From positions 1 to 15,116 of the forward strand of contig JBFGZE010000081.1 of NCBI GenBank assembly GCA_041586955.1: a stretch of DNA of 15,116 nt, read 5' to 3'. The first letter of the stretch is position 1. Every line of letters starts with the position of its first letter. Position numbers and translations under genes: made by a program. The notes below the pieces were generated by a model that was given only the letters and a program-made list of their open reading frames with translations, did not search any database and was not told the origin of the DNA. Shown here piece after piece: positions 4,819 through 15,116 of the stretch. This stretch comes from Bacteriovoracaceae bacterium. GTDB taxonomy: Bacteria > Bdellovibrionota > Bacteriovoracia > Bacteriovoracales > Bacteriovoracaceae.

Positions 4819-5340
4819 TTATGCAGCGAGTATTTTTTTCTTTTGGCTTTGAAATTCTTCTTCTGTAAGAATACCTTTTTCTTTTAAGTCAGCTAATTTT
4901 AGGAGTTGGCTTGCTGTATCTTCTCCATCATTGCTTGAACCTTGGCTTTTTGTGGCATTATCAATTTGTGTGTTTAATGCCTCAGTAAATGGTCTAACGG
5001 TATTCTTTATGACATTGGAAATGCTCATCTTTGATGATCCATCCCAAATAGTAATTGTTCCAAGCATTAAACCCGTTTTTTGTTCAATTGAATTGATCTT
5101 TTCAAGTGGCGTTTCAACTTGTTTAAGACCATATAGCATTCCTTTATCGAGAAATATGACCCTGTAGTTCGTGCATACAATTAACCATGTATTTCCATTC
5201 ATAAATCCCGATGTAAGGCCTTTTATTGCTTCATTCTGTCTGAGAATTTCCGGAAGATACTTGATTTCCTTTTTTGTCCCCAGCTGATCTGTATGCTCTA
5301 GACTTTTAATTTGATTCTTGATTTCTTCTAGCGTAGGCAT
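4819..5340 (-). CDS. Bacterial PH-domain (YokE/bPH_3-like) protein with C-terminal SHOCT domain
   Basis: GGAG RBS. LIVCTNYRVIFLDKGMLYGLKQVETPLEKINSIEQKTGLMLGTITI is bPH-like. ASQLLKLADLKEKGILTEEEFQSQKKKIL is the SHOCT signature. Confidence 0.9.
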   Translation of the reverse strand: MPTLEEIKNQIKSLEHTDQLGTKKEIKYLPEILRQNEAIKGLTSGFMNGNTWLIVCTNYRVIFLDKGMLYGLKQVETPLEKINSIEQKTGLMLGTITIWDGSSKMSISNVIKNTVRPFTEALNTQIDNATKSQGSSNDGEDTASQLLKLADLKEKGILTEEEFQSQKKKILAA

Positions 5341-5740: not shown

Positions 5741-5987
5741 TTCCTGTTTAAATACTAGTTGTAAGTATATGTCTTTTATGTGTGTTTCGATGTTTAGTTA
5801 AGAAAACTTGGGTTTTTTCTTGATAACTTCAGCCGATAAGACAAAAAAGGATGTCTTTATCTTCTATCATTAAAAATGAAGTAGGCATTATGTATCGTAA
5901 TAGAAACACTGATAGCTTTTTTAGAGAAAAATATTTTTTGGTATAAACTTGAAATCTCTGATGAGAAATCAAATAAGGTCGTTGAAT

Positions 5988-7049
5988 ATGGCGTGGTATT
6001 TTAGAAAATCATTGAAGCTTGGTCCTGTAAGACTTAATTTTTCTAAAAAGGGGTTGGGTTGTTCCGTCGGCGTTAAAGGGTTAAGGGTTGGCCAGGCAGC
6101 AACTGGAAAAGAGTATATCCATGCTGGAAGGAATGGTTTTTATTACAGGAAGAGTCTGGGGGGCGCGAAATCAAGCAAAAGTGAAGAGCAAGTTATTGAT
6201 AGCAAGGTAGATAAAGGAAGCGTAATACATACAATAAAGGCTATTTTGTTAAATGACGAGAGTGCGCTTCTTAACCAGCTTAAAAAATCAAAAGAGCAAT
6301 TTCGCCTTGATTACCTTGCTTCGCTCATCTGTTTTATATTGTCATGGGTGCTATGGAGTATTAATAATATCACTGGACTTTTGTTTATAGCAGGAAGTTT
6401 GATTTTAGTGTCAATTGTTGCGTATTTTGAAAGTAAAAGAAGAACTGTCATTATGGATTATGATTTTTCTGAGGCAGAGTATAATAGCTATGAAAATATC
6501 GTTAACTCATTTAACCATCTCGCATCATGTAAGAAGGTGTGGCAGGTCCTACAAAGTAAAGGTATAAGCGGAAAGGATGTTAAAAGAAATGCTGGAGCCA
6601 GCCATCTTGTAGAACGTTTGGATATTCAGTTAGGAGAGGGGCTGCCGCCATGGGTAGAGTCTAATATAAATTTTCCGACGATAAATGGAAAAGATCAAAC
6701 AATTTACTTCCTTCCTGAAGGGGTGCTGATCTATGACAGCAGTGGAATTGGTATAGTGCAATACAAAGACATAGATATCTCTTGTTCTCTTAATAGATTT
6801 ATCGAAGATGGAAATGTTCCTAGTGATTCAACTATTGTAGATTATACATGGCAACATCCTAACAAATCAGGCGGTCCTGATAAGAGATTTTCTAGTAATA
6901 GACAAATTCCGATTTGCTCTTATGGCGGTTTGGATATTACAAGTAAAAATGGTTTTAGAATAATGATATATGCTTCAAATAGTGAAAGTATTGAATTGTT
7001 CTCAAGTGGTTTTGAAAGAGTCATTAGTGTAAAGCCCAGGTCTGCGTAG
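5988..7049 (+). CDS. DUF4236-domain membrane protein
   Basis: N-terminus MAWYFRKSLKLGPVRLNFSKKGLGCSVGVKGLRVG...GFYYRK is the DUF4236 pattern, which places the start at ATG 5988. Two hydrophobic segments; C-terminal WQHPNKSGGPDKRF motif. Confidence 0.88.
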   Translation: MAWYFRKSLKLGPVRLNFSKKGLGCSVGVKGLRVGQAATGKEYIHAGRNGFYYRKSLGGAKSSKSEEQVIDSKVDKGSVIHTIKAILLNDESALLNQLKKSKEQFRLDYLASLICFILSWVLWSINNITGLLFIAGSLILVSIVAYFESKRRTVIMDYDFSEAEYNSYENIVNSFNHLASCKKVWQVLQSKGISGKDVKRNAGASHLVERLDIQLGEGLPPWVESNINFPTINGKDQTIYFLPEGVLIYDSSGIGIVQYKDIDISCSLNRFIEDGNVPSDSTIVDYTWQHPNKSGGPDKRFSSNRQIPICSYGGLDITSKNGFRIMIYASNSESIELFSSGFERVISVKPRSA

Positions 7050-7139: not shown

Positions 7140-7442
7140 TTGGCAAATCTAGATACTTTAGAAGAGTGGCACCTAACTCCTGAAGGGTGGAGGAAAAATA
7201 CTTTAAAATCCAGAAACAGAGATAAGAAAAAGGATATTGGAGTACCAGCGGACAGGTATTTAACAATCCAATGCTGGGAATATGAGAGAAGTAACTGGAG
7301 CGCTTTGACAGGCGGTTGTGATTACTCATTTATATCAAATGATAAAAAGACTTTAGGGAAGCTCATTCAAAGCTACGGAAATGCTCCAAAAAGATATTTC
7401 AGCAAATTTAAGAACAGAGATCCATTAAACTTAAGGAGCTGA
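7140..7442 (+). CDS. Hypothetical protein with N-terminal EWHLTPxGW motif
   Basis: Strong GGGAGG RBS just before TTG at 7140; 100 aa. Confidence 0.7.
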   Translation: MANLDTLEEWHLTPEGWRKNTLKSRNRDKKKDIGVPADRYLTIQCWEYERSNWSALTGGCDYSFISNDKKTLGKLIQSYGNAPKRYFSKFKNRDPLNLRS

Positions 7443-7500
7443 TTCTATATGGATTTTTAAAGGGTTTCTCAAACGGATCAAGTGAAGGTTTAAAATTCTT

Positions 7501-8511
7501 TTAAAGAAGATTTCCCGCAGGATTATTTAAAACATTTCCAGCTTCGTAATAGGAGAGAGCTACCGATACTGTTTTGTGCCCTGAAAGCGCCATAGTATCT
7601 CCAAGTGTGATTCCATTTTTTCCGCATTCAGTAATAAAGCCAGATCTTAGGCCATGGGCACTAAACTTCTTCGAATCATAGCCGGCTTTAGCTATTAGTT
7701 TTTTCACAATATTGTTAACTGACTTTGCTGATATTGCCTTTTCTTCGAGTTTGTCGCTTCCTTTTCTAATTGCTCTAAAAATTGACCCTTCTTCAATTTT
7801 TATGGCCTCCAAATACGCCTCTAGAAGCCTTCCAGCGAGTCCTAGTATGGGTAGGCTTAGGCCAATTCCCTCCTGGTCGGTCTTTGAGTGAGTTAAATTT
7901 AAAAGATAACCACCCTCAACCTTTTGCAGGTCTTCCCTTTTAATTTGGGCTATTTCTGATCTTCTTCGGCCACCACTAGAAAAACCTACGGCCACTATCG
8001 CTGCATTTCTCATTCCTCTAAGATCATTTGAGCATTGATTAAGAATTTTTTCTAAGATGTCTTTTGTTATGGCATTTGATTTTGAGCGTTGTCCTTTAAG
8101 GGCCCTTGAGGCCTTGGAAAGAACCTTTTTAACGACTTGATCTCTAGTGGGGTTATCTAGGCCTTTCATTTCGTGAAAAGCTGAAATGGAAGCGATTCTT
8201 CTTTTAACAGTGGTGAGTTTATGAGCGCCTAGTTTAGATTTGACTTTTTTGTCCACTAGCTCCTGGTCTATATGTTTTGGAAGCCCTTCAAGGTGTTCAG
8301 CGATGAAAGCGAGAATAGTCTCGATGCTAATTGGCGGATGAAAGCTTTGGCCTTGAGAAATCTCCATCCACGTCTTGAAATAGGCCAAATCTTTGCGATA
8401 GGCCTTTTTGGTGTTTTCGGCGGTGCCTTGGTCGATTATTTTTTTTAATTTTTTTTCAATTTCCAGATCATTTTTAAAAATTCCCGCATTTTTTTCTAAA
8501 ATATCGCTCAT
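7501..8511 (-). CDS. Cre-like tyrosine recombinase (TnpS-type resolvase)
   Basis: N-terminal core-binding domain (AENTKKAYRKDL...TVKRRIASISAFH). Catalytic motifs GGRRRSE, HSKTDQ, HGLR, LSGH, YY. Confidence 0.93.
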   Translation of the reverse strand: MSDILEKNAGIFKNDLEIEKKLKKIIDQGTAENTKKAYRKDLAYFKTWMEISQGQSFHPPISIETILAFIAEHLEGLPKHIDQELVDKKVKSKLGAHKLTTVKRRIASISAFHEMKGLDNPTRDQVVKKVLSKASRALKGQRSKSNAITKDILEKILNQCSNDLRGMRNAAIVAVGFSSGGRRRSEIAQIKREDLQKVEGGYLLNLTHSKTDQEGIGLSLPILGLAGRLLEAYLEAIKIEEGSIFRAIRKGSDKLEEKAISAKSVNNIVKKLIAKAGYDSKKFSAHGLRSGFITECGKNGITLGDTMALSGHKTVSVALSYYEAGNVLNNPAGNLL

Positions 8512-8530
8512 TTTTAACCACCGTTTTTAG

Positions 8531-8555
8531 TTCCGATAATTTAATCTTAACGGAA
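8531..8555. promoter_or_regulatory. Candidate core recombination site (9-7-9 inverted repeat)
   Basis: ttccgataa-tttaatc-ttaacggaa, one mismatch, asymmetric spacer, about 20 bp upstream of the recombinase start. Confidence 0.6.
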
Positions 8556-8572
8556 GCGCTGTTGAGCGTCAA
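8544..8572 (-). promoter_or_regulatory. Sigma70-type promoter of the Cre-like recombinase
   Basis: Minus strand TTGACG (8572-8567), 17 bp, TAAGAT (8549-8544). Confidence 0.55.
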
Positions 8573-8604
8573 GCATTTTTTTACACGAGGCGTCGTGAAA
8601 TCAG

Positions 8605-8940
8605 CTAGTTATGGAAAGCTTGACAATGTGTGTCAATTATGGTATCCTGAAGGGGTAGGCGGGCGGGCTGCCCTTTTCTAATAAAGGCCTCTGGGAAAAA
8701 AACGCAGGCAAAATAAACATCGCCGCCCTTAAGATATCTCGGTACAAAATAGCCAAACCCCATATAGAAATCCAAATAGCCCAAGGGGTCGAGGAATCTA
8801 ATTTCACAAAAATAAAGATAGATCTCAAAAATTTTATCGAGAGAAAGAAGCAAACCTTCCCCACCGTCCTTCTCTCTAATAAACTCGTTAACAAAGCGTT
8901 CGATAGAATCTTCTGAAAAGTTTTGTATTGAGCTATTCAT
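8605..8940 (-). CDS. Hypothetical protein resembling the C-terminal winged helix of D5/P4-type primase-helicases
   Basis: AAAGGAG RBS favours ATG 8940 (MNSSIQ...). DSIERFVNEF...LDKIFEIYLYFCEIRFLDPLGYLDFYMGF resembles the DPxxxFxxE...LYxxYxxWCxxxGxxPL pattern. Confidence 0.55.
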   Translation of the reverse strand: MNSSIQNFSEDSIERFVNEFIREKDGGEGLLLSLDKIFEIYLYFCEIRFLDPLGYLDFYMGFGYFVPRYLKGGDVYFACVFFPEAFIRKGQPARLPLQDTIIDTHCQAFHN

Positions 8941-9090
8941 GTTTGTGCGCTCCTTTCTTTGTTGTTGCTGGTGAGATTTGAACCCATTTCTTTTCAGCAG
9001 CTTTTCTCCACCTGCTGCCGTCTTTTCGAGTGGTGACATGGCCAATGGGAAATGCTCTGCTATTAAGTGTGAATTTGAATTTCATTTTTT

Positions 9091-9669
9091 CTACCTCAAT
9101 AAATGCGCTATGGAGTTGGCGTTATATTTTCTCACTTCCTCTTGGTAGGAGATAAACTCTTGCGCTGGCCCCTGCTTTTTGTTCCGCTCAAAGAATTTTT
9201 TTCTTTCTAATGTTTCTCGAAAGCGATTTAGGGCCAGGACTGCGCACTTAAGGTAACGATTATCATTTTCGGGATTGTAACTTTTGCGCTCCCCCCACAG
9301 GCGGTAAAATTTTTTGTCATCGACAATTATTCTATCTTCTTTCCAGATTCCAGCAATGGCGCTAGATAGCTCCACATCAAGATCGGCGATATTGGCGCTA
9401 AAGGGAATGCCTTCTACCCTAATGCGATATCTCGCATCGCTATCAATCAGTTTCTCTACAAAGACGCTCTCCCTTGGACTGTTCACCACGATGGAGAAGT
9501 CTTTCGACTCAGGCTCAATCTGGGCGGATAATTCTTTTTTGAGGTGGTGAAATGATGGGGCTTCAATTGAATCCTTCAGAACCATTTTGTTTTTTTCAAG
9601 ATGCCAAACCATCATGAGGGCTTGGCTTGAATTACTATTACAGGGGTTAATGGAAATAATTCGCTGCAT
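9091..9669 (-). CDS. Hypothetical protein; probable degenerate terminase RNase H-like nuclease domain
   Basis: AGGAG RBS next to the terL stop. Motif order parallels the TerL C-terminus but lacks the acidic catalytic residues. Confidence 0.6.
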   Translation of the reverse strand: MQRIISINPCNSNSSQALMMVWHLEKNKMVLKDSIEAPSFHHLKKELSAQIEPESKDFSIVVNSPRESVFVEKLIDSDARYRIRVEGIPFSANIADLDVELSSAIAGIWKEDRIIVDDKKFYRLWGERKSYNPENDNRYLKCAVLALNRFRETLERKKFFERNKKQGPAQEFISYQEEVRKYNANSIAHLLR

Positions 9670-9678
9670 ATTCTTCTC

Positions 9679-11340
9679 CTAGCTAAAAATATCACGGTGT
9701 TCGACTTTTGTTGTGACTCTAATGAGCATCTCCAAAGCGTCGGGAAAGTCGTCGCTGTCGGCATGGGGGAAGTCCTCTAGAGTGTTCAAAATTTCCGGGG
9801 AAATGGCGCGATTGAAGATCACTTGCCCATGAGTCACCCGCGGCTCGATTGAAAAGATCCTGCGCTCCTTGTTTTCAGTATTGTGCAAAGGCAGAAAATA
9901 GAGAGGAATGACCTCGCCAATCTCTTGCTGTCTGCGCTCTCTTTCAGCTTCTAGGTTCTCTATAAGCAGTCCTGAGAAATGATTTTTTTCAACTCCAAAA
10001 TTCTGGTAATGAAAATAGTTATTGAGATCAAAGACTTTTCTAACTATTTCAGTGGGGGGCATGCGCCTAAACACAACGTCGTGAATTAGCACCCTATTGT
10101 CGGGGGAGAGAAAACCCGACACTATTGCGGTGTAATCGGACAATTGGCCGGCCTTGCCTCCGCCACTTGAGGGGTCAATCACCCCAAAAGATTTATGCTG
10201 TAATTCTGAAAAGAGAAATTCTGTGCCCGATTCTAAAATCAGGCGTCCTTCAACAAAGTCGTAATAGTGGATCTTGTCGAACACTTTTTCTTCGGCTCCT
10301 AACGGAGACCCTTGCTTTTCCTTAAAGAATGCCCTTTTTCCCTTCTCTATCAACTCCTTGTAGAGATAGAGAAATGGTTCTTTCTGTGGCCAAAGGACCT
10401 CCACTCCCTGAAGCATATCGTCCTTGTTTTCTTCAAAGAAATTATCCGCTTCAATTGATCTCGCTTCAGATTCGAGATCGGTATAGATTTTTGAAAATTT
10501 GTCCCAAAGGTCTGTTCTCTCTGGCCAATTTAGGACTGCTGAGAAAAGTTCTGACTCGTAGGCAGGGTTTTTAGTGAGGTTCATGAGGAGAGAATCTCTG
10601 TGAAGAATTGTTCCGACTAACTCAATATTGGTACTTGTATCCCCCAGATTAGCGACAACTTGCATGAGCCAATCAAACATTTTGATTCTCAGCCTTTCAT
10701 TAAAAACTTCTTCGGAGTGCTCAATGTCATCTAGAACAATCTTGCTTGGTCTGTAATGTCCATACTTCAATCCTCTCACTTCACTTCCTGCACCAAATGC
10801 CATGAATTTGCATGATCCATTCGCGGTGTGAACGACGAACTCTGTTCGGCCAGGTTTTTTAGTGTCAAAGCGTATTCCAAAGTCATTAATAAGGTCCTTA
10901 TTTGTAAGAAATTCGGTCAGGATTTCGAATATTTTTTGGTTACTCTGGACCATGGTATTGGAAAAAATAACGATAAAGTTTTCATAGCCATAACAGGCAT
11001 CGTGCAGAAGCTTGATGAAACAGGCTATGGTTGACTTTGCATAACCCCTCGGCGCTGCCCAAGCAGCTCGAAGACCTCTTTCATTGTATTTTTCTGTATA
11101 TCTACTAAAGAGCTTTTTGTGGAAATTATTAAAAGGATATTTACAATAATGGGGGAAGTATTTTTTTGAAAAAAGCTCTACGTCTGTTGCCATACGAGCG
11201 ATTAGAACTCTTTTCTTGTTATTTTCAGATTCTTGCCGGTCGTAAAAATCTAGAAAATCCTTCTTCGATAGAGCCGATAATTTGACGATAATTTCCGAGT
11301 AGATTCTTCCAACAAAAGAAGCTCCATGAACTATGCTCAT
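9679..11340 (-). CDS. terL: Phage terminase large subunit
   Basis: Walker A AAPRGYAKST, RG motif, Walker B KIVLDDIE, coupling motif GTILH. Nuclease motifs VIDPS, SDYTAI, FGVEKN, KERRI, DDFPDAL. Confidence 0.95.
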   Translation of the reverse strand: MSIVHGASFVGRIYSEIIVKLSALSKKDFLDFYDRQESENNKKRVLIARMATDVELFSKKYFPHYCKYPFNNFHKKLFSRYTEKYNERGLRAAWAAPRGYAKSTIACFIKLLHDACYGYENFIVIFSNTMVQSNQKIFEILTEFLTNKDLINDFGIRFDTKKPGRTEFVVHTANGSCKFMAFGAGSEVRGLKYGHYRPSKIVLDDIEHSEEVFNERLRIKMFDWLMQVVANLGDTSTNIELVGTILHRDSLLMNLTKNPAYESELFSAVLNWPERTDLWDKFSKIYTDLESEARSIEADNFFEENKDDMLQGVEVLWPQKEPFLYLYKELIEKGKRAFFKEKQGSPLGAEEKVFDKIHYYDFVEGRLILESGTEFLFSELQHKSFGVIDPSSGGGKAGQLSDYTAIVSGFLSPDNRVLIHDVVFRRMPPTEIVRKVFDLNNYFHYQNFGVEKNHFSGLLIENLEAERERRQQEIGEVIPLYFLPLHNTENKERRIFSIEPRVTHGQVIFNRAISPEILNTLEDFPHADSDDFPDALEMLIRVTTKVEHRDIFS

Positions 11341-12008
11341 TGGTGGTCACTCTCTTTAAGGTCGAGCAATTCTTCTAGAATCCTTCGATCATTGCTTTCG
11401 TTAATTGTACTTTTAACTGTTTGATCCTGACTGCTCTCAATTAAATCCAACTCCCTTTGTTTGTTCTTGATGTCACTCAAAATTTTGAATGTGCGTGCCA
11501 GTCCTCTTTGCACCTCTTCTGGATCTTTGAACTCTAGGACGAGCCCGTGTTCAGTGGGGGTAATTTTTTTAATAAGTTTTCTAGCGGGCTGAGGTATCTC
11601 TTCAATGCTCTTTGGAACCCAGTTCCCCTTAAAAAAATCCGTGACATCAGTTGAGACAGATCGTGCCAGCTCCAAATTGTTTTGAGCAAAAATCGCAGAA
11701 AAGGAACTGGTTGCGAGTTGGGTCCTCATGGCGATGTACTCCTGAACTGCCTTGCAACTGTTAAGCAAGGCGTACGCCTTTTGTTTTGCCGTTTTCCTAG
11801 GATAGCCTGCTATTATTGCCGCTTCAGTTTCATCGCGGCCTTGGAGCCATTCGTCACAAAAAGCCCGCTGCTTTTTGGTCAATTGAAATTCATCCTTCGT
11901 TAAATCCCGAAGCTCCTCTATTTTGCTGGCCTTTTTTACATTACCCGACACAAATACCCAGGCGAAAACTAGTTGTGGCGGTGCGTCTGGCTGCACAGCG
12001 AAGGCCAC
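11337..12008 (-). CDS. terS: Phage terminase small subunit (true start may be downstream, e.g. GTG 11951)
   Basis: LTKKQRAFCDEWLQGRDETEAAIIAGYPRKTAKQKAYALL...VQEYI is the Terminase_2-type HTH signature. ATGA overlap with terL. Confidence 0.92.
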   Translation of the reverse strand: MAFAVQPDAPPQLVFAWVFVSGNVKKASKIEELRDLTKDEFQLTKKQRAFCDEWLQGRDETEAAIIAGYPRKTAKQKAYALLNSCKAVQEYIAMRTQLATSSFSAIFAQNNLELARSVSTDVTDFFKGNWVPKSIEEIPQPARKLIKKITPTEHGLVLEFKDPEEVQRGLARTFKILSDIKNKQRELDLIESSQDQTVKSTINESNDRRILEELLDLKESDHQ

Positions 12009-12026
12009 ACGCTAAAACCTGCCGAC

Positions 12027-12938
12027 TCACAACAGGTCCGCTACTAAACATAACGAGTTCTCAAAACCAGCTCTTCTCTTATGGTAGTGAATAGTGGTGG
12101 ATGGTTGCTTATGGCCGACCTCCGTCATAATTTGGTAAAGGTCATGGCCTTGCTCGAAAAGATAAGTAATAAAAGTTGCCCTCAATGAATGAGTAGTGAC
12201 ATTAGGAATGGAGGCTAGCGAAGCGTACTTCTTTACGATGGACCCCATTCCTTTGGGCGATATTTTTTTACAAAAGATCGATTGAAAGAAATAATCCTTT
12301 TGCCCAATGCGGTTTCCTTTTTTTCTTTGAAGATTTCGGTATTCATGAACATAGCGGGCGACATCGTCACGTAGGGGGAGAAAGTACTCCGCTCCACCTT
12401 TGCGTTTTATTTTAATTATGATTTTTCCGTTCGTGAAAGAGATTTCTGAACCCTTAATGTTAGCAATCTCCCCTTGCCTCACCCCTGTCGTTAGAAGCAC
12501 TGAGATTAAAGCGATGTGCATTTTATTTTTACCATTTAGGACTTCGTTGAAAAATCTCTTTGCTTCCTCTTGAGACAAAGCTGTCGTTTCTCGCGTTGGT
12601 CTAACATTTCTAATTTTTACACCCAGAGTGGGATTAATTGGAATTATCGACTCTTCTGATAACCACTGAAAAAAGTCCCTAATGCTCGCAAGTTTTCTGG
12701 CAACCGTTTTTTTAGATGCCTCTCCACCGCTCATCCCTCCCTTTTTTTTTGCCTGGGCCAAAAAGGTTTTGAGGTGCCCTTTTTTTACGTCTTTAAAGTG
12801 GCGAATGCCTTCCTGGCTTAGAAACTCACCAAACTGGTTAAGGTCAATTCGCAGCGCCTTGATTGTGTGCTCGTTGTGCTTTTGCCTCAAAAAGCGCCTA
12901 AAGATCTCTAATTCAGAAATTTTTTTTGTCTCTTCCAT
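12027..12938 (-). CDS. XerC/XerD-like tyrosine recombinase/integrase
   Basis: SAM-like N-terminus (HTIKALRIDLNQF...TVARKLASIRDFFQWL...NP). Catalytic motifs TGVRQGE, KRKG, HSLR, VGH...TTIHY. AAGGA RBS. Confidence 0.93.
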   Translation of the reverse strand: MEETKKISELEIFRRFLRQKHNEHTIKALRIDLNQFGEFLSQEGIRHFKDVKKGHLKTFLAQAKKKGGMSGGEASKKTVARKLASIRDFFQWLSEESIIPINPTLGVKIRNVRPTRETTALSQEEAKRFFNEVLNGKNKMHIALISVLLTTGVRQGEIANIKGSEISFTNGKIIIKIKRKGGAEYFLPLRDDVARYVHEYRNLQRKKGNRIGQKDYFFQSIFCKKISPKGMGSIVKKYASLASIPNVTTHSLRATFITYLFEQGHDLYQIMTEVGHKQPSTTIHYHKRRAGFENSLCLVADLL

Positions 12939-13034
12939 GAAATCATCCTTAATAAAAGTCCTTATTCTCCCCTTATAGAAAATATAAAGTAGTGAAGCTG
13001 GAAAATCTGGAATAACAATGTTATTTCTTTTGCC

Positions 13035-13895
13035 ATGTCGAAAAGGCCTTTAAAAGAGCACGAGAAATACTTTAGTAATCTTGAGAAATTATTACTGGAT
13101 GCCTATGGCCATATGCGACCTCCGGAAAAAGATGACTTTCGCCCGTTGATAAAAAAACTATCAAGACTAAACAGAGAAAGAGATGCTGAGGACTATTTCG
13201 ACAACCTAGAGCAATTGCTATTTGAAGCTTACGATATTTTGAAGTTTTGGGATAATGAGTACCACTACCTGCTGTTTAAAACCATTTCAATGCTAAACTA
13301 TGAAAGAGGCACTGAGGATTATTTTGAAAATTTCGAAGACTTTGGTGAGGTCGCGCGTATCCGACAGGAAAATGAGGAGTTCTCATTGTCAAAAAAACGG
13401 TGCCTTGCTTATCTAAAAAAAATCAATGCAAGGCTTGATGAATATAGCTCTCTTTTTCATTTTGATGAAAGTCAATCTGATCCATTTTTTAATCAAAAAT
13501 TGATGTGGATAAGGAAAGTCTATACGAGCTTGGCATCCTTGAATGATTCGTTTGCGGAGAAGTGCATTATTACACATTTTGATGCTTCCCTATATATTGA
13601 TTTAAAACACTTTAATGATACGGTTGCTGAGGTAAACAGAACCATTGCAAGCATCAAAAAAATGCCTATTAATATTCATCTCAACATGGAAATAAAAGAG
13701 AAAGAAACCACAGACGCCCATCGCTTCCTAAAAGAATATCAAAATGCAAAAGTTCTTGAAGTGGAAACAACAAGGAAACGAAAGCAGAGAGCTGCCAAAA
13801 ATGAAAATAATTCACATCACACAGTTGCTACTCTAGCAATGATCGAGTCCGAAATAAAAAATATTTTGTTAAGCTTGCCAGATGATACGAACTAA
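13035..13895 (+). CDS. Hypothetical helical protein with N-terminal 42-aa tandem repeat
   Basis: 286-aa ORF divergent from the recombinase-terminase block; ExYFxN at residues 10, 52 and 94. Confidence 0.75.
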   Translation: MSKRPLKEHEKYFSNLEKLLLDAYGHMRPPEKDDFRPLIKKLSRLNRERDAEDYFDNLEQLLFEAYDILKFWDNEYHYLLFKTISMLNYERGTEDYFENFEDFGEVARIRQENEEFSLSKKRCLAYLKKINARLDEYSSLFHFDESQSDPFFNQKLMWIRKVYTSLASLNDSFAEKCIITHFDASLYIDLKHFNDTVAEVNRTIASIKKMPINIHLNMEIKEKETTDAHRFLKEYQNAKVLEVETTRKRKQRAAKNENNSHHTVATLAMIESEIKNILLSLPDDTN

Positions 13896-14473: not shown

Positions 14474-14507
14474 ATTGTTAAACACGAAACCGCATAGGAG
14501 ATATTCA

Positions 14508-15116
14508 ATGGAAAGAATGTATTCGCCTTCAGAGGTTATTAATATCCTAAGAAGTGAATTTACCAAGAGATCACTTCAGACCTCTGAGACAGCTGGCGAC
14601 ATTCCAAAAGCAACGAGAATAAAGACCGGACAGGTTGAGCGTAGAAAATGGCCAATTAACGACATTCCATCAATTGGGGAACGTTTTGGTCAGTTCAAAA
14701 AGCCTTCTGAAGCCAAGGTTGTTACGTTTTTCACAGCCAAGGGCGGAACTCTCAAAACGACAACGTCATTCAACTTTGGCAGAACTCTTGCCCTTCATGG
14801 GGTATCTGTTTGCTTGGTCGGTTTAGATATTCAAGAATCGCTCACAATAATGGCCCTGCCCGAACAAGAGGTTGAGTCACTGTCTGACTTTAAGGAAAGG
14901 AAAGGTTTGGGCGATTACTTTTGCGACAAGCTAGAGTCAGTCAATGAGTGCCTGTGTGACACAGACTTACCAACCCTAAAAATACTTCCTGAAAACTACA
15001 GACTGACCGATCTAAACAATTGGCTTTCCTCTCAAACAAGACGGGAAGATGTTTTCAAAAATAAACTAATTCCCGAGCTGAAGGAAAAATTCGACGTTGT
15101 AATCTTTGACTGTTCA
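14508..15116 (+). CDS. parA: ParA-family partition ATPase, 5' part (continues through the junction to 534; 333 aa in total)
   Basis: AGGAG at 14496-14500, ATG at 14508. Translation MERMYSPSEVINILRSEF...KVVTFFTAKGGTLKTTTSFNFGRTLALHGVSVCLVGLDIQESL gives a deviant Walker A and A' after an N-terminal extension of about 70 aa. Missed by the ORF track because it runs off the end. Confidence 0.93.
   Translation, partial: MERMYSPSEVINILRSEFTKRSLQTSETAGDIPKATRIKTGQVERRKWPINDIPSIGERFGQFKKPSEAKVVTFFTAKGGTLKTTTSFNFGRTLALHGVSVCLVGLDIQESLTIMALPEQEVESLSDFKERKGLGDYFCDKLESVNECLCDTDLPTLKILPENYRLTDLNNWLSSQTRREDVFKNKLIPELKEKFDVVIFDCS
14976..15116 (+). repeat. Right copy of 141-bp terminal direct repeat (circular assembly overlap)
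   Basis: Identical to 1-141 and lies inside the parA coding sequence. Confidence 0.97.

Follow-up and report, generated by a model that had tools for sequence, protein, structure and literature searches.

A putative non-catalytic RNase H-like protein encoded next to the terminase genes of a plasmid-like element from a Bacteriovoracaceae bacterium

Contig JBFGZE010000081.1 of the assembly GCA_041586955.1, which originates from a Bacteriovoracaceae bacterium, comprises 15,116 nt (this whole stretch is called “the window” in the following) and represents a plasmid-like element with genes for a small and a large terminase subunit, terS and terL. Here we analyzed the gene that directly follows terL, i.e. 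an open reading frame (ORF) for a protein of 192 aa that is designated ORF192. We propose that ORF192 is a non-catalytic protein with a fold of the RuvC/terminase type that acts together with the terminase of the element, and we assign a probability of about 50% to this reading. Four soft lines of evidence, i.e. a whole-domain profile alignment, the neighbors in the protein language model ESM, structural comparisons with Foldseek, and the order of predicted secondary structure elements, are mutually consistent and match a fold that had been named beforehand from the sequence alone. None of the four is decisive, and their joint support is moderate. If the fold holds, the element would encode a separate, catalytically dead nuclease fold of the terminase/RuvC type beside an intact large terminase.

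ORF192 is a gene adjoining terL

The features of ORF192 are the following:

9091..9669, minus strand: ORF192, an ATG-initiated ORF for an orphan protein of 192 aa (22.5 kDa, pI 9.0)
9676..9680, minus strand: Shine-Dalgarno (SD) motif AGGAG, which overlaps the terL stop codon and lies 6 nt ahead of the ORF192 ATG (read from the sequence)
9220..9669, minus strand: residues 1-150, putative RNase H-like domain of the RuvC/terminase type, with N8 in the place of the first catalytic Asp
9646-9648, minus strand: codon of N8
9094..9282, minus strand: residues 130-192, basic (pI 9.7) helical hairpin tail

The first helix of the tail (about residues 133-150) doubles as the final helix of the putative RNase H-like domain. 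ORF192 adjoins terL directly at its 3′-side, as had been stated before, and the start codon is separated from the terL stop by 9 nt. The codon usage is gene-like, with a log-likelihood per codon of 0.134, compared with 0.125 for terS, 0.111 for int303, and −0.212 for the antisense ORF (the tyrosine recombinases of the window have values of 0.111 and 0.206). The ESM recognition value of 2797 is typical of real proteins (91 of 100 proteins of known families reach 2300). The ORF192 stretch is also present, with 0 differing letters, in contigs of two further runs (X2 and X3) of one marine-metagenome study; these contigs span most or all of ORF192, and an X4 contig spans only a part of it. The intact ATG frame, the SD motif, the codon usage, the recognition by the language model and the recurrence in two further runs show that ORF192 is a real gene. 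Judged from the gene arrangement, it is predicted to be expressed within the terS-terL operon and to be translationally coupled to terL. A scan of positions 7300-13200 for promoters and terminators yielded counts no higher than expected from shuffled sequences.

Predicted fold of ORF192

For ORF192, 29 of the 30 named ESM neighbors are Terminase_6C clusters of about 200-240 aa, with a score of 0.92; the three nearest clusters have no common family. A single-sequence model was calculated with AlphaFold2 (AF2). It contains strands at residues 2-9, 17-25 and 28-37, a helix at 40-50, and a further strand at 58-62, at a predicted local distance difference test (pLDDT) value of 36.7. With this model as a query, the best Foldseek rows against the PDB include RNase H-like folds, i.e. 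Ppx/GppA, a poxvirus resolvase, RuvC, YqgF, YeaZ and sugar kinases, as well as the terminases 8dgc_E and 5oe9_B. Against BFVD, a viral RuvC of 169 aa is found at rank 1 (2.2e-3), and at least ten terminases are among the 50 rows listed. The secondary-structure string of residues 1-150 is best placed at residues 383-547 of TerL, i.e. at the nuclease domain, with a score of 60.5 compared with 52.6 for the next placement. The N-terminal part of the low-confidence model appears RNase H-like, and no match to a head or portal protein was found in Pfam, in PHROGs, with a portal BLASTP, or with a portal hidden Markov model (HMM); a different fold or such a match had been named as outcomes that would speak against the earlier proposal.

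Whole-domain alignment with the TerL nuclease domain

The sequence-only reading had aligned ORF192 by eye with the C-terminus of TerL, in six blocks. For an independent comparison, a glocal test was used, i.e. a whole-domain Viterbi alignment of ORF192 to a profile of 177 nodes built from 115 TerL nuclease domains, and the traceback was computed without reference to the blocks of the eye alignment. It is collinear and covers all 177 nodes, interrupted by three short deletions and by an insertion of one residue. Five of the six blocks are regained, which lends modest support to the eye alignment, while standard homology tools see nothing of it. The score of ORF192 is −30.1 bits. Among real proteins of the same genome used as decoys, 5 of 500, 11 of 700 and 3 of 400 score equally well or better, and the same is true for 5-10 of 300 shuffled sequences.

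For residues 1-150, the z values against the TerL nuclease profile are 2.37 (relative to shuffles) and 2.12 (relative to decoys). A RuvC profile built from 30 genomes of the family yields 2.62 and 2.32, respectively. For comparison, 22 control profile windows (three from the ATPase segment, ten along TerL, and nine along the portal) have z values from −2.35 to 1.59, with −2.35 to 0.78 for the portal windows. A known remote pair, the nuclease domain of the window’s TerL and the RuvC profile, reaches a z value of 1.9 with the same method. On the basis of all four lines, it is moderately supported that residues 1-150 adopt an RNase H-like fold of the RuvC/large-terminase type. As to its origin, ORF192 scores as well against RuvC (z values of 2.3-2.6) as against the TerL nuclease (2.1-2.4), so that the alignments would be compatible with either ancestry. 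The proposal of a dead RNase H-like nuclease thus fared differently in its two parts: the four lines agree on the fold, and the paralogy to TerL is not separable from a kinship to RuvC.

A recent duplication of the 3′-end of terL was rejected, as neither protein nor DNA similarity is found. A mimicry of the C-terminal tail of the TerL family (NNRYK...MGGR) by the ORF192 C-terminus was likewise rejected: with the tail HMM, the top-scoring domain reaches only −5.2 and is located in another part of the protein, and an equal or better score was obtained for 974 of the 977 decoys that were scored.

Predicted loss of the active site

According to the sequence-only reading, an Asn stands in the place of the first catalytic Asp and the final DxxD motif is lost, and both substitutions reappear in the computed alignment. 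The invariant residues D389 and P390 of TerL align with N8 and P9 of ORF192, respectively, and the counterparts of D530, D531 and D534 are N137, R138 and K141. The intermediate carboxylate E451 is aligned with V61 in the computed register and with N63 in the register of the eye alignment. Hence none of the metal-binding carboxylates of the window’s TerL (D389, E451, D530/D531) is kept at the aligned ORF192 positions. In the RuvC register, the first catalytic Asp likewise falls on N8. For the G20c TerL, the mutants D294N, D347N and D429N, i.e. Asp-to-Asn exchanges at the three metal-binding positions, are described to have the lowest nuclease activity (PMC5389553). With N8 in place of the first metal-binding Asp and the other carboxylates lost, DNA cleavage by ORF192 via the canonical two-metal mechanism would be very unlikely, provided that the fold is right.

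Observations that weigh against the proposed fold

Several observations weigh against the fold assignment. The fold lines are individually weak, and two of them share one poor AF2 model with a pLDDT of only 36.7. No Foldseek row reaches an E value of 1e-3 against the PDB or BFVD, and the aligned columns number just 60-88. The ESM shared features of 142-150 are below the value of 170 that is typical of true family members, and a third of shuffled proteins also reach ten concordant ESM matches. The glocal signal is fragile, with z values of only 2.1-2.6. When a TerL profile of 520 nodes was built separately, the 160-node windows nearest to the nuclease domain, the ends of which do not match the domain boundaries, gave z values of 0.1-0.8. 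TerS, which is longer, scores −28.6 against the TerL nuclease profile, and full-length ORF192 has a z value of 2.0 against one ATPase-segment profile, which is attributed to its helical tail.

In direct sequence comparisons, the best BLASTP match between ORF192 and TerL has an E value of 0.94 and lies in a different register elsewhere in TerL. A local HMM of the TerL C-terminus yields 0.1 bits on ORF192, and 430 of 1835 scored shuffles are equal or better. The profile check against terminases that had been suggested turned out negative: hhalign against 43 TerLs of the family gave a probability of 0.6%, and hhalign -glob yielded only a trivial end overlap of 5 columns. Pfam contains no terminase family that matches ORF192 at E 0.1, and NCBIfam none at all. 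The z values of Smith-Waterman alignments of ORF192 and TerL are 0.7 (BLOSUM62) and 2.1 (BLOSUM45), both in another register, and the semi-global value is −0.4. In PHROGs, ORF192 misses the stand-alone C-terminal families phrog_5573 and phrog_11978, both of which are matched by TerL. Lastly, neither a homolog of ORF192 nor polymorphism among the runs was found that would give a measure of conservation or selection.

ORF192 is an orphan

ORF192 matches itself alone among 5.8 billion clustered proteins, and an exhaustive HMMER reading of 1.84 billion representative proteins also retrieved only the self-match. Two further matches of the exhaustive search, P0002 and P0003, were discarded as artefacts, because they are tandem-repeat proteins that are aligned in 14 and 6 stretches, respectively. 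Collections of plasmids and phages contain no match to ORF192, and none was found in Pfam, PHROGs, NCBIfam or the PDB sequences. In 80 loci with a related terL, the best tblastn E value for ORF192 is 0.22, and the best phmmer E value for the downstream ORFs is 0.81. Genomes of the same bacterial family contain no match either, apart from weak ones in G191 (7.4e-4 over 70 residues) and G160 (0.0078). ORF192 is thus known from a single element, and every line for its fold is soft. PADLOC and Rfam likewise gave no match.

The terminase genes and the portal slot

The neighboring terminase features are the following:

9679..11340, minus strand: terL, large terminase of 553 aa (phrog_38, 1.8e-67)
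9679-9760, minus strand: region of the TerL C-terminus, which is without the C-terminal tail of the family (W540, NNRYK...MGGR)
11337..12008, minus strand: terS, small terminase of 223 aa (Terminase_2, 2e-15; phrog_51, 2.3e-15)

terS and terL overlap by 4 nt. terL is a genuine large terminase gene: the AF2 model of TerL has a pLDDT of 90.4, the PhiV-1 terminase is the best Foldseek match (1.2e-16), and TerL retains 60 of 60 invariant columns in an alignment of the family with 43 sequences. At the same time, none of the other 42 sequences diverges as strongly: TerL deviates at 21 of the 139 columns with a conservation of at least 90%, versus 0-19 in the others. For other phages, a contact between TerL and the portal via a C-terminal arm of TerL has been proposed (PMC5727402).

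TerL relatives with 42-52% identity are numerous, and many of them are encoded on contigs of 40-48 kb. Downstream sequence is available for 75 related loci, and in 28 of them terL is followed first by an ORF of at least 420 aa. Among the closest loci, L009, L012, L013, L014 and L005 have an ORF of 484-514 aa directly after terL, and in L008, terL is first followed by two small ORFs. Two of the large ORFs after terL were scanned, and both matched SPP1_portal (1.3e-17 and 3.1e-14). Since both scanned ORFs are SPP1-type portal genes, ORF192 occupies the portal slot, which agrees with the position that the sequence-only reading had assigned to it. A remnant of a portal gene was searched for with an HMM built from 28 portal sequences and was rejected, as no match occurred in the six frames of positions 7401-9700. 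BLASTP of ORF192 against the portal of genome G012 gave an E value of 3.7, and no portal family of Pfam was matched.

None of the 83 loci inspected was found to contain an additional nuclease-like ORF next to an intact terL; the only short matches are split or broken terL genes and one lone fragment. In four loci (L021, L025, L032 and L054), terL is divided between two frames, so that the nuclease half stands alone (E values of 1e-46 to 1e-59). The lone fragment, a nuclease fragment of 134 aa (L042:2863-3264), is followed by an intact terL at a distance of about 5 kb. Such split terL genes probably explain the short Terminase_6C clusters among the ESM neighbors.

Alternative explanations

The nuclease likeness could have arisen by chance, in which case ORF192 would be an unrelated, lineage-specific orphan, e.g. 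a regulator, an anti-defence factor or another plasmid cargo. We consider this explanation rather unlikely, yet a serious contender. A beta-beta-beta-alpha-beta unit at the N-terminus with helices behind it is frequently encountered, no standard method gives a significant match for ORF192, the alignment z values of about 2-2.6 are sensitive to the boundaries, the model confidence is low, and the ESM shared-feature counts are within the range of chance matches or distant relatives. In addition, the next gene, orf111, is an orphan, too, so that the segment between terL and the recombinase gene may be fast-evolving cargo. However, four different soft methods agree on a fold class that had been named in advance, none of the 22 control windows reaches the z values of the two RNase H-like profiles, and ORF192 is predicted to be coupled translationally to terL, all of which speak against this explanation.

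Alternatively, ORF192 might be a divergent RuvC-like resolvase of phage type that cuts branched DNA prior to packaging with non-canonical residues and is not a TerL paralog. Its 192 aa are the size of stand-alone resolvases, the RuvC profile gives z values of 2.62/2.32 versus 2.37/2.12 for TerL, a viral RuvC is the best BFVD row, RuvC, the poxvirus resolvase and YqgF are among the PDB rows, and in the RuvC register, the acidic E134 takes up one of the two final Asp positions. Nevertheless, this appears improbable, because the first Asp, which is essential in both families, is an Asn, no RuvC family of Pfam matches at E 0.1, the named ESM neighbors are Terminase_6C and not RuvC, and the RuvC and TerL registers conflict in the middle of the protein. 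We give slightly less credence still to ORF192 as a functionless, decaying remnant, left over from a portal gene or from a second terL that was lost when terS and terL were captured by the plasmid. The element does lack the portal gene that follows terL in the relatives, broken or split terL C-terminal halves are found in L021, L025, L032 and L054 and a lone fragment in L042, and TerL diverges more strongly than any other member of its family. Yet the ORF192 frame is intact, with an ATG, a good SD motif and gene-like codon usage, and the profile of 28 portal sequences leaves no trace in the six frames of 7401-9700. Furthermore, the split TerL halves elsewhere retain E values of 1e-31 to 1e-59 to the nuclease profile, whereas nothing is detectable locally in ORF192, and TerL itself retains all invariant residues.

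Comparison with known systems

Compared with the nuclease domains of large terminases (Terminase_6C, T7 RNaseH-like, TIGR01630 and relatives; G20c, Sf6, D6E, T4 gp17, PhiV-1), ORF192 shares the predicted order of strands and helices, the collinear alignment over the whole domain, the Terminase_6C neighbors in ESM and the terminases among its Foldseek rows. In contrast, it stands alone with its own SD motif and ATG, has no ATPase domain, carries an additional basic helical hairpin, and has no significant profile match. The carboxylates described as indispensable in G20c (PMC5389553) are absent at the aligned positions. With RuvC and the RuvC-like resolvases of phages (PF02075), ORF192 shares an equal or slightly better glocal z value, the top position of a viral RuvC in BFVD and a similar size, and in the alignment, its I-N-P motif is the counterpart of I-D-P in strand 1 of RuvC. 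The differences are the Asn in the place of the first catalytic Asp, the missing Pfam match, and the middle of the alignment, which is inconsistent with the TerL register.

The nearest functional precedent would be the C-terminal domain of phi29 gp16, which is described as a vestigial nuclease that has lost catalysis and still binds DNA in the motor (PMC7672431). ORF192 would resemble it as a terminase-type nuclease fold without catalysis that could retain the binding of nucleic acids in a packaging motor. In phi29, the domain forms one polypeptide with the ATPase and takes the place of the nuclease, whereas ORF192 is a separate polypeptide beside an intact and apparently catalytic TerL nuclease domain.

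A second point of comparison is Gpi of PLE, a satellite protein that is described to bind and inhibit the TerL of the helper ICP1 (PMC11071384). Like Gpi, ORF192 is a small protein of a capsid-less mobile element that is encoded together with packaging functions, and by analogy it could bind a terminase. PLE has no TerL of its own, in contrast to the ORF192 element, which carries both TerS and TerL.

With regard to the element as a whole, the closest likeness is found in the VEIMEs, which are characterized as marine capsid-less satellites, some of which are suggested to live as plasmids; full-size capsids take them up in the form of concatemers, and their monomers range from under 5 to 16.8 kb (PMC9618062). 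The element shares with them the marine origin, a size of 15 kb that lies within the monomer range, the absence of capsid genes, tyrosine recombinases and TerS. For the VEIMEs, small terminase homologs and motor-like ATPases are described, with the large terminase expected from the helper (PMC9618062), while the element has a full TerL.

Possible role of ORF192

We propose that ORF192 would be made together with TerS and TerL from a circular ParA plasmid-like element with a complete terminase. Its residues 1-150 would form an RNase H-like fold with an Asn-substituted active site, followed by the basic helical hairpin. Like the vestigial nuclease domain of phi29 gp16, it may have kept the ability to bind DNA or the terminase, and it might serve the element’s own packaging enzyme as a non-catalytic accessory. 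Pseudo-enzymes usually work as binding modules, which, if the fold holds, would make ORF192 a candidate handle on the coupling of the element’s own motor to a foreign procapsid. Conditional on the fold, the preferred role is that it helps the tail-less TerL to dock on the heterologous procapsid of a helper, or that it tunes the place and time of cutting by TerL. Alternatively, it could poison the motor of the helper, as Gpi does via the TerL of ICP1. We only infer the binding partners of ORF192, the role in packaging and the satellite lifestyle.

The most far-reaching version holds that the circle is a plasmid-borne phage satellite with its own TerS and TerL, in which a stand-alone pseudo-nuclease replaces the portal, with ORF192 as an adaptor of the tail-less TerL to the portal of an unrelated helper phage or as a poison of the helper’s motor, and which is packaged as a concatemer of roughly three units in capsids of about 45 kb. 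We regard this complete scenario as unlikely.

Searches of the literature yielded no description of a dead protein with a nuclease fold that has its own gene beside an intact terL, and no paper that combines Bacteriovoracaceae, plasmid and terminase. At best, ORF192 varies a known theme, i.e. that of RNase H-like pseudo-enzymes and vestigial terminase nucleases.

The 14,975-bp element

The window is one whole contig. Its positions 1-141 are identical to positions 14976-15116, and this exact terminal repeat of 141 nt shows that the contig closes to a circle of 14,975 bp. The further features of the element are the following:

14475-15116, continuing at 1-534: gene for ParA (AAA_31), running across the circle junction
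534-1889 (parA-orf451 region): orf451, 451 aa, after parA
4819-5340: gene for a bPH_3 and SHOCT protein (phrog_2700, 6.7e-55), a phage-associated family of unknown function
5949-7049: gene for a DUF4236 membrane protein (phrog_17982, 9.3e-49), a phage-associated family of unknown function
7501-8511, minus strand: tyrosine recombinase gene
8605..8940, minus strand: orf111, a second orphan, between ORF192 and the recombinase gene, with AAAGGAG upstream of the ATG and a codon score of 0.093
12027-12938, minus strand: tyrosine recombinase gene

The genes of the minus-strand row thus have the order recombinase, terS, terL, ORF192, orf111, recombinase. The orf111 protein matches itself alone, with a database record of 111 aa rather than the TTG-initiated form of 146 aa, and has no match to a protein family. 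An ORF of 50 aa between orf111 and ORF192 (8933-9085) is probably not a gene, as its codon score is negative. The bPH_3/SHOCT and DUF4236 genes stand among small ORFs for secreted or lipoprotein-like products. An iteron-like array of at least 15 copies of a unit with an 11-nt period (GAGACAAAGTA-like) lies inside orf451 (731-1335), where the protein consists of DKVE-type repeats; it may represent an origin or a centromere that is embedded in the coding region.

Of 236 other genomes of this bacterial family, 12 also contain the ParA-orf451 backbone, often on small contigs. Eight such loci (among L090-L098) were compared with the window; they have ParA and orf451 alone in common with it, and none contains terS or terL, which identifies the terS-terL-ORF192 module as an acquisition. 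Among the proteins of the window, searches against Pfam and PHROGs identified no portal, capsid or tail gene. In the element, a backbone that is common in the family is thus joined to a complete terS-terL pair, while genes for virion proteins are missing.

The size of the element is about one third of that of the contigs of about 45 kb that bear related terminases, and a ratio of one third is typical of satellites and their helpers. The host genome (G000, 88% complete) contains no match to SPP1_portal, Phage_capsid or the HK97 capsid, and no helper phage was found in it. When the plus-strand ORFs of at least 120 aa from four related loci were compared with this genome, the matches were terL and three unrelated small genes. 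The sole other sign of a phage is a sub-threshold Phage_portal match (35.9 bits, cut-off 39.1) in a frame of 589 aa (L088; G000:C131:3528-3953). One of the loci with a related terL (L005:4126-4395) contains a long hexanucleotide microsatellite upstream of the terS region, in which all six frames are open and encode MSQ, VAN, RKC and similar repeats.

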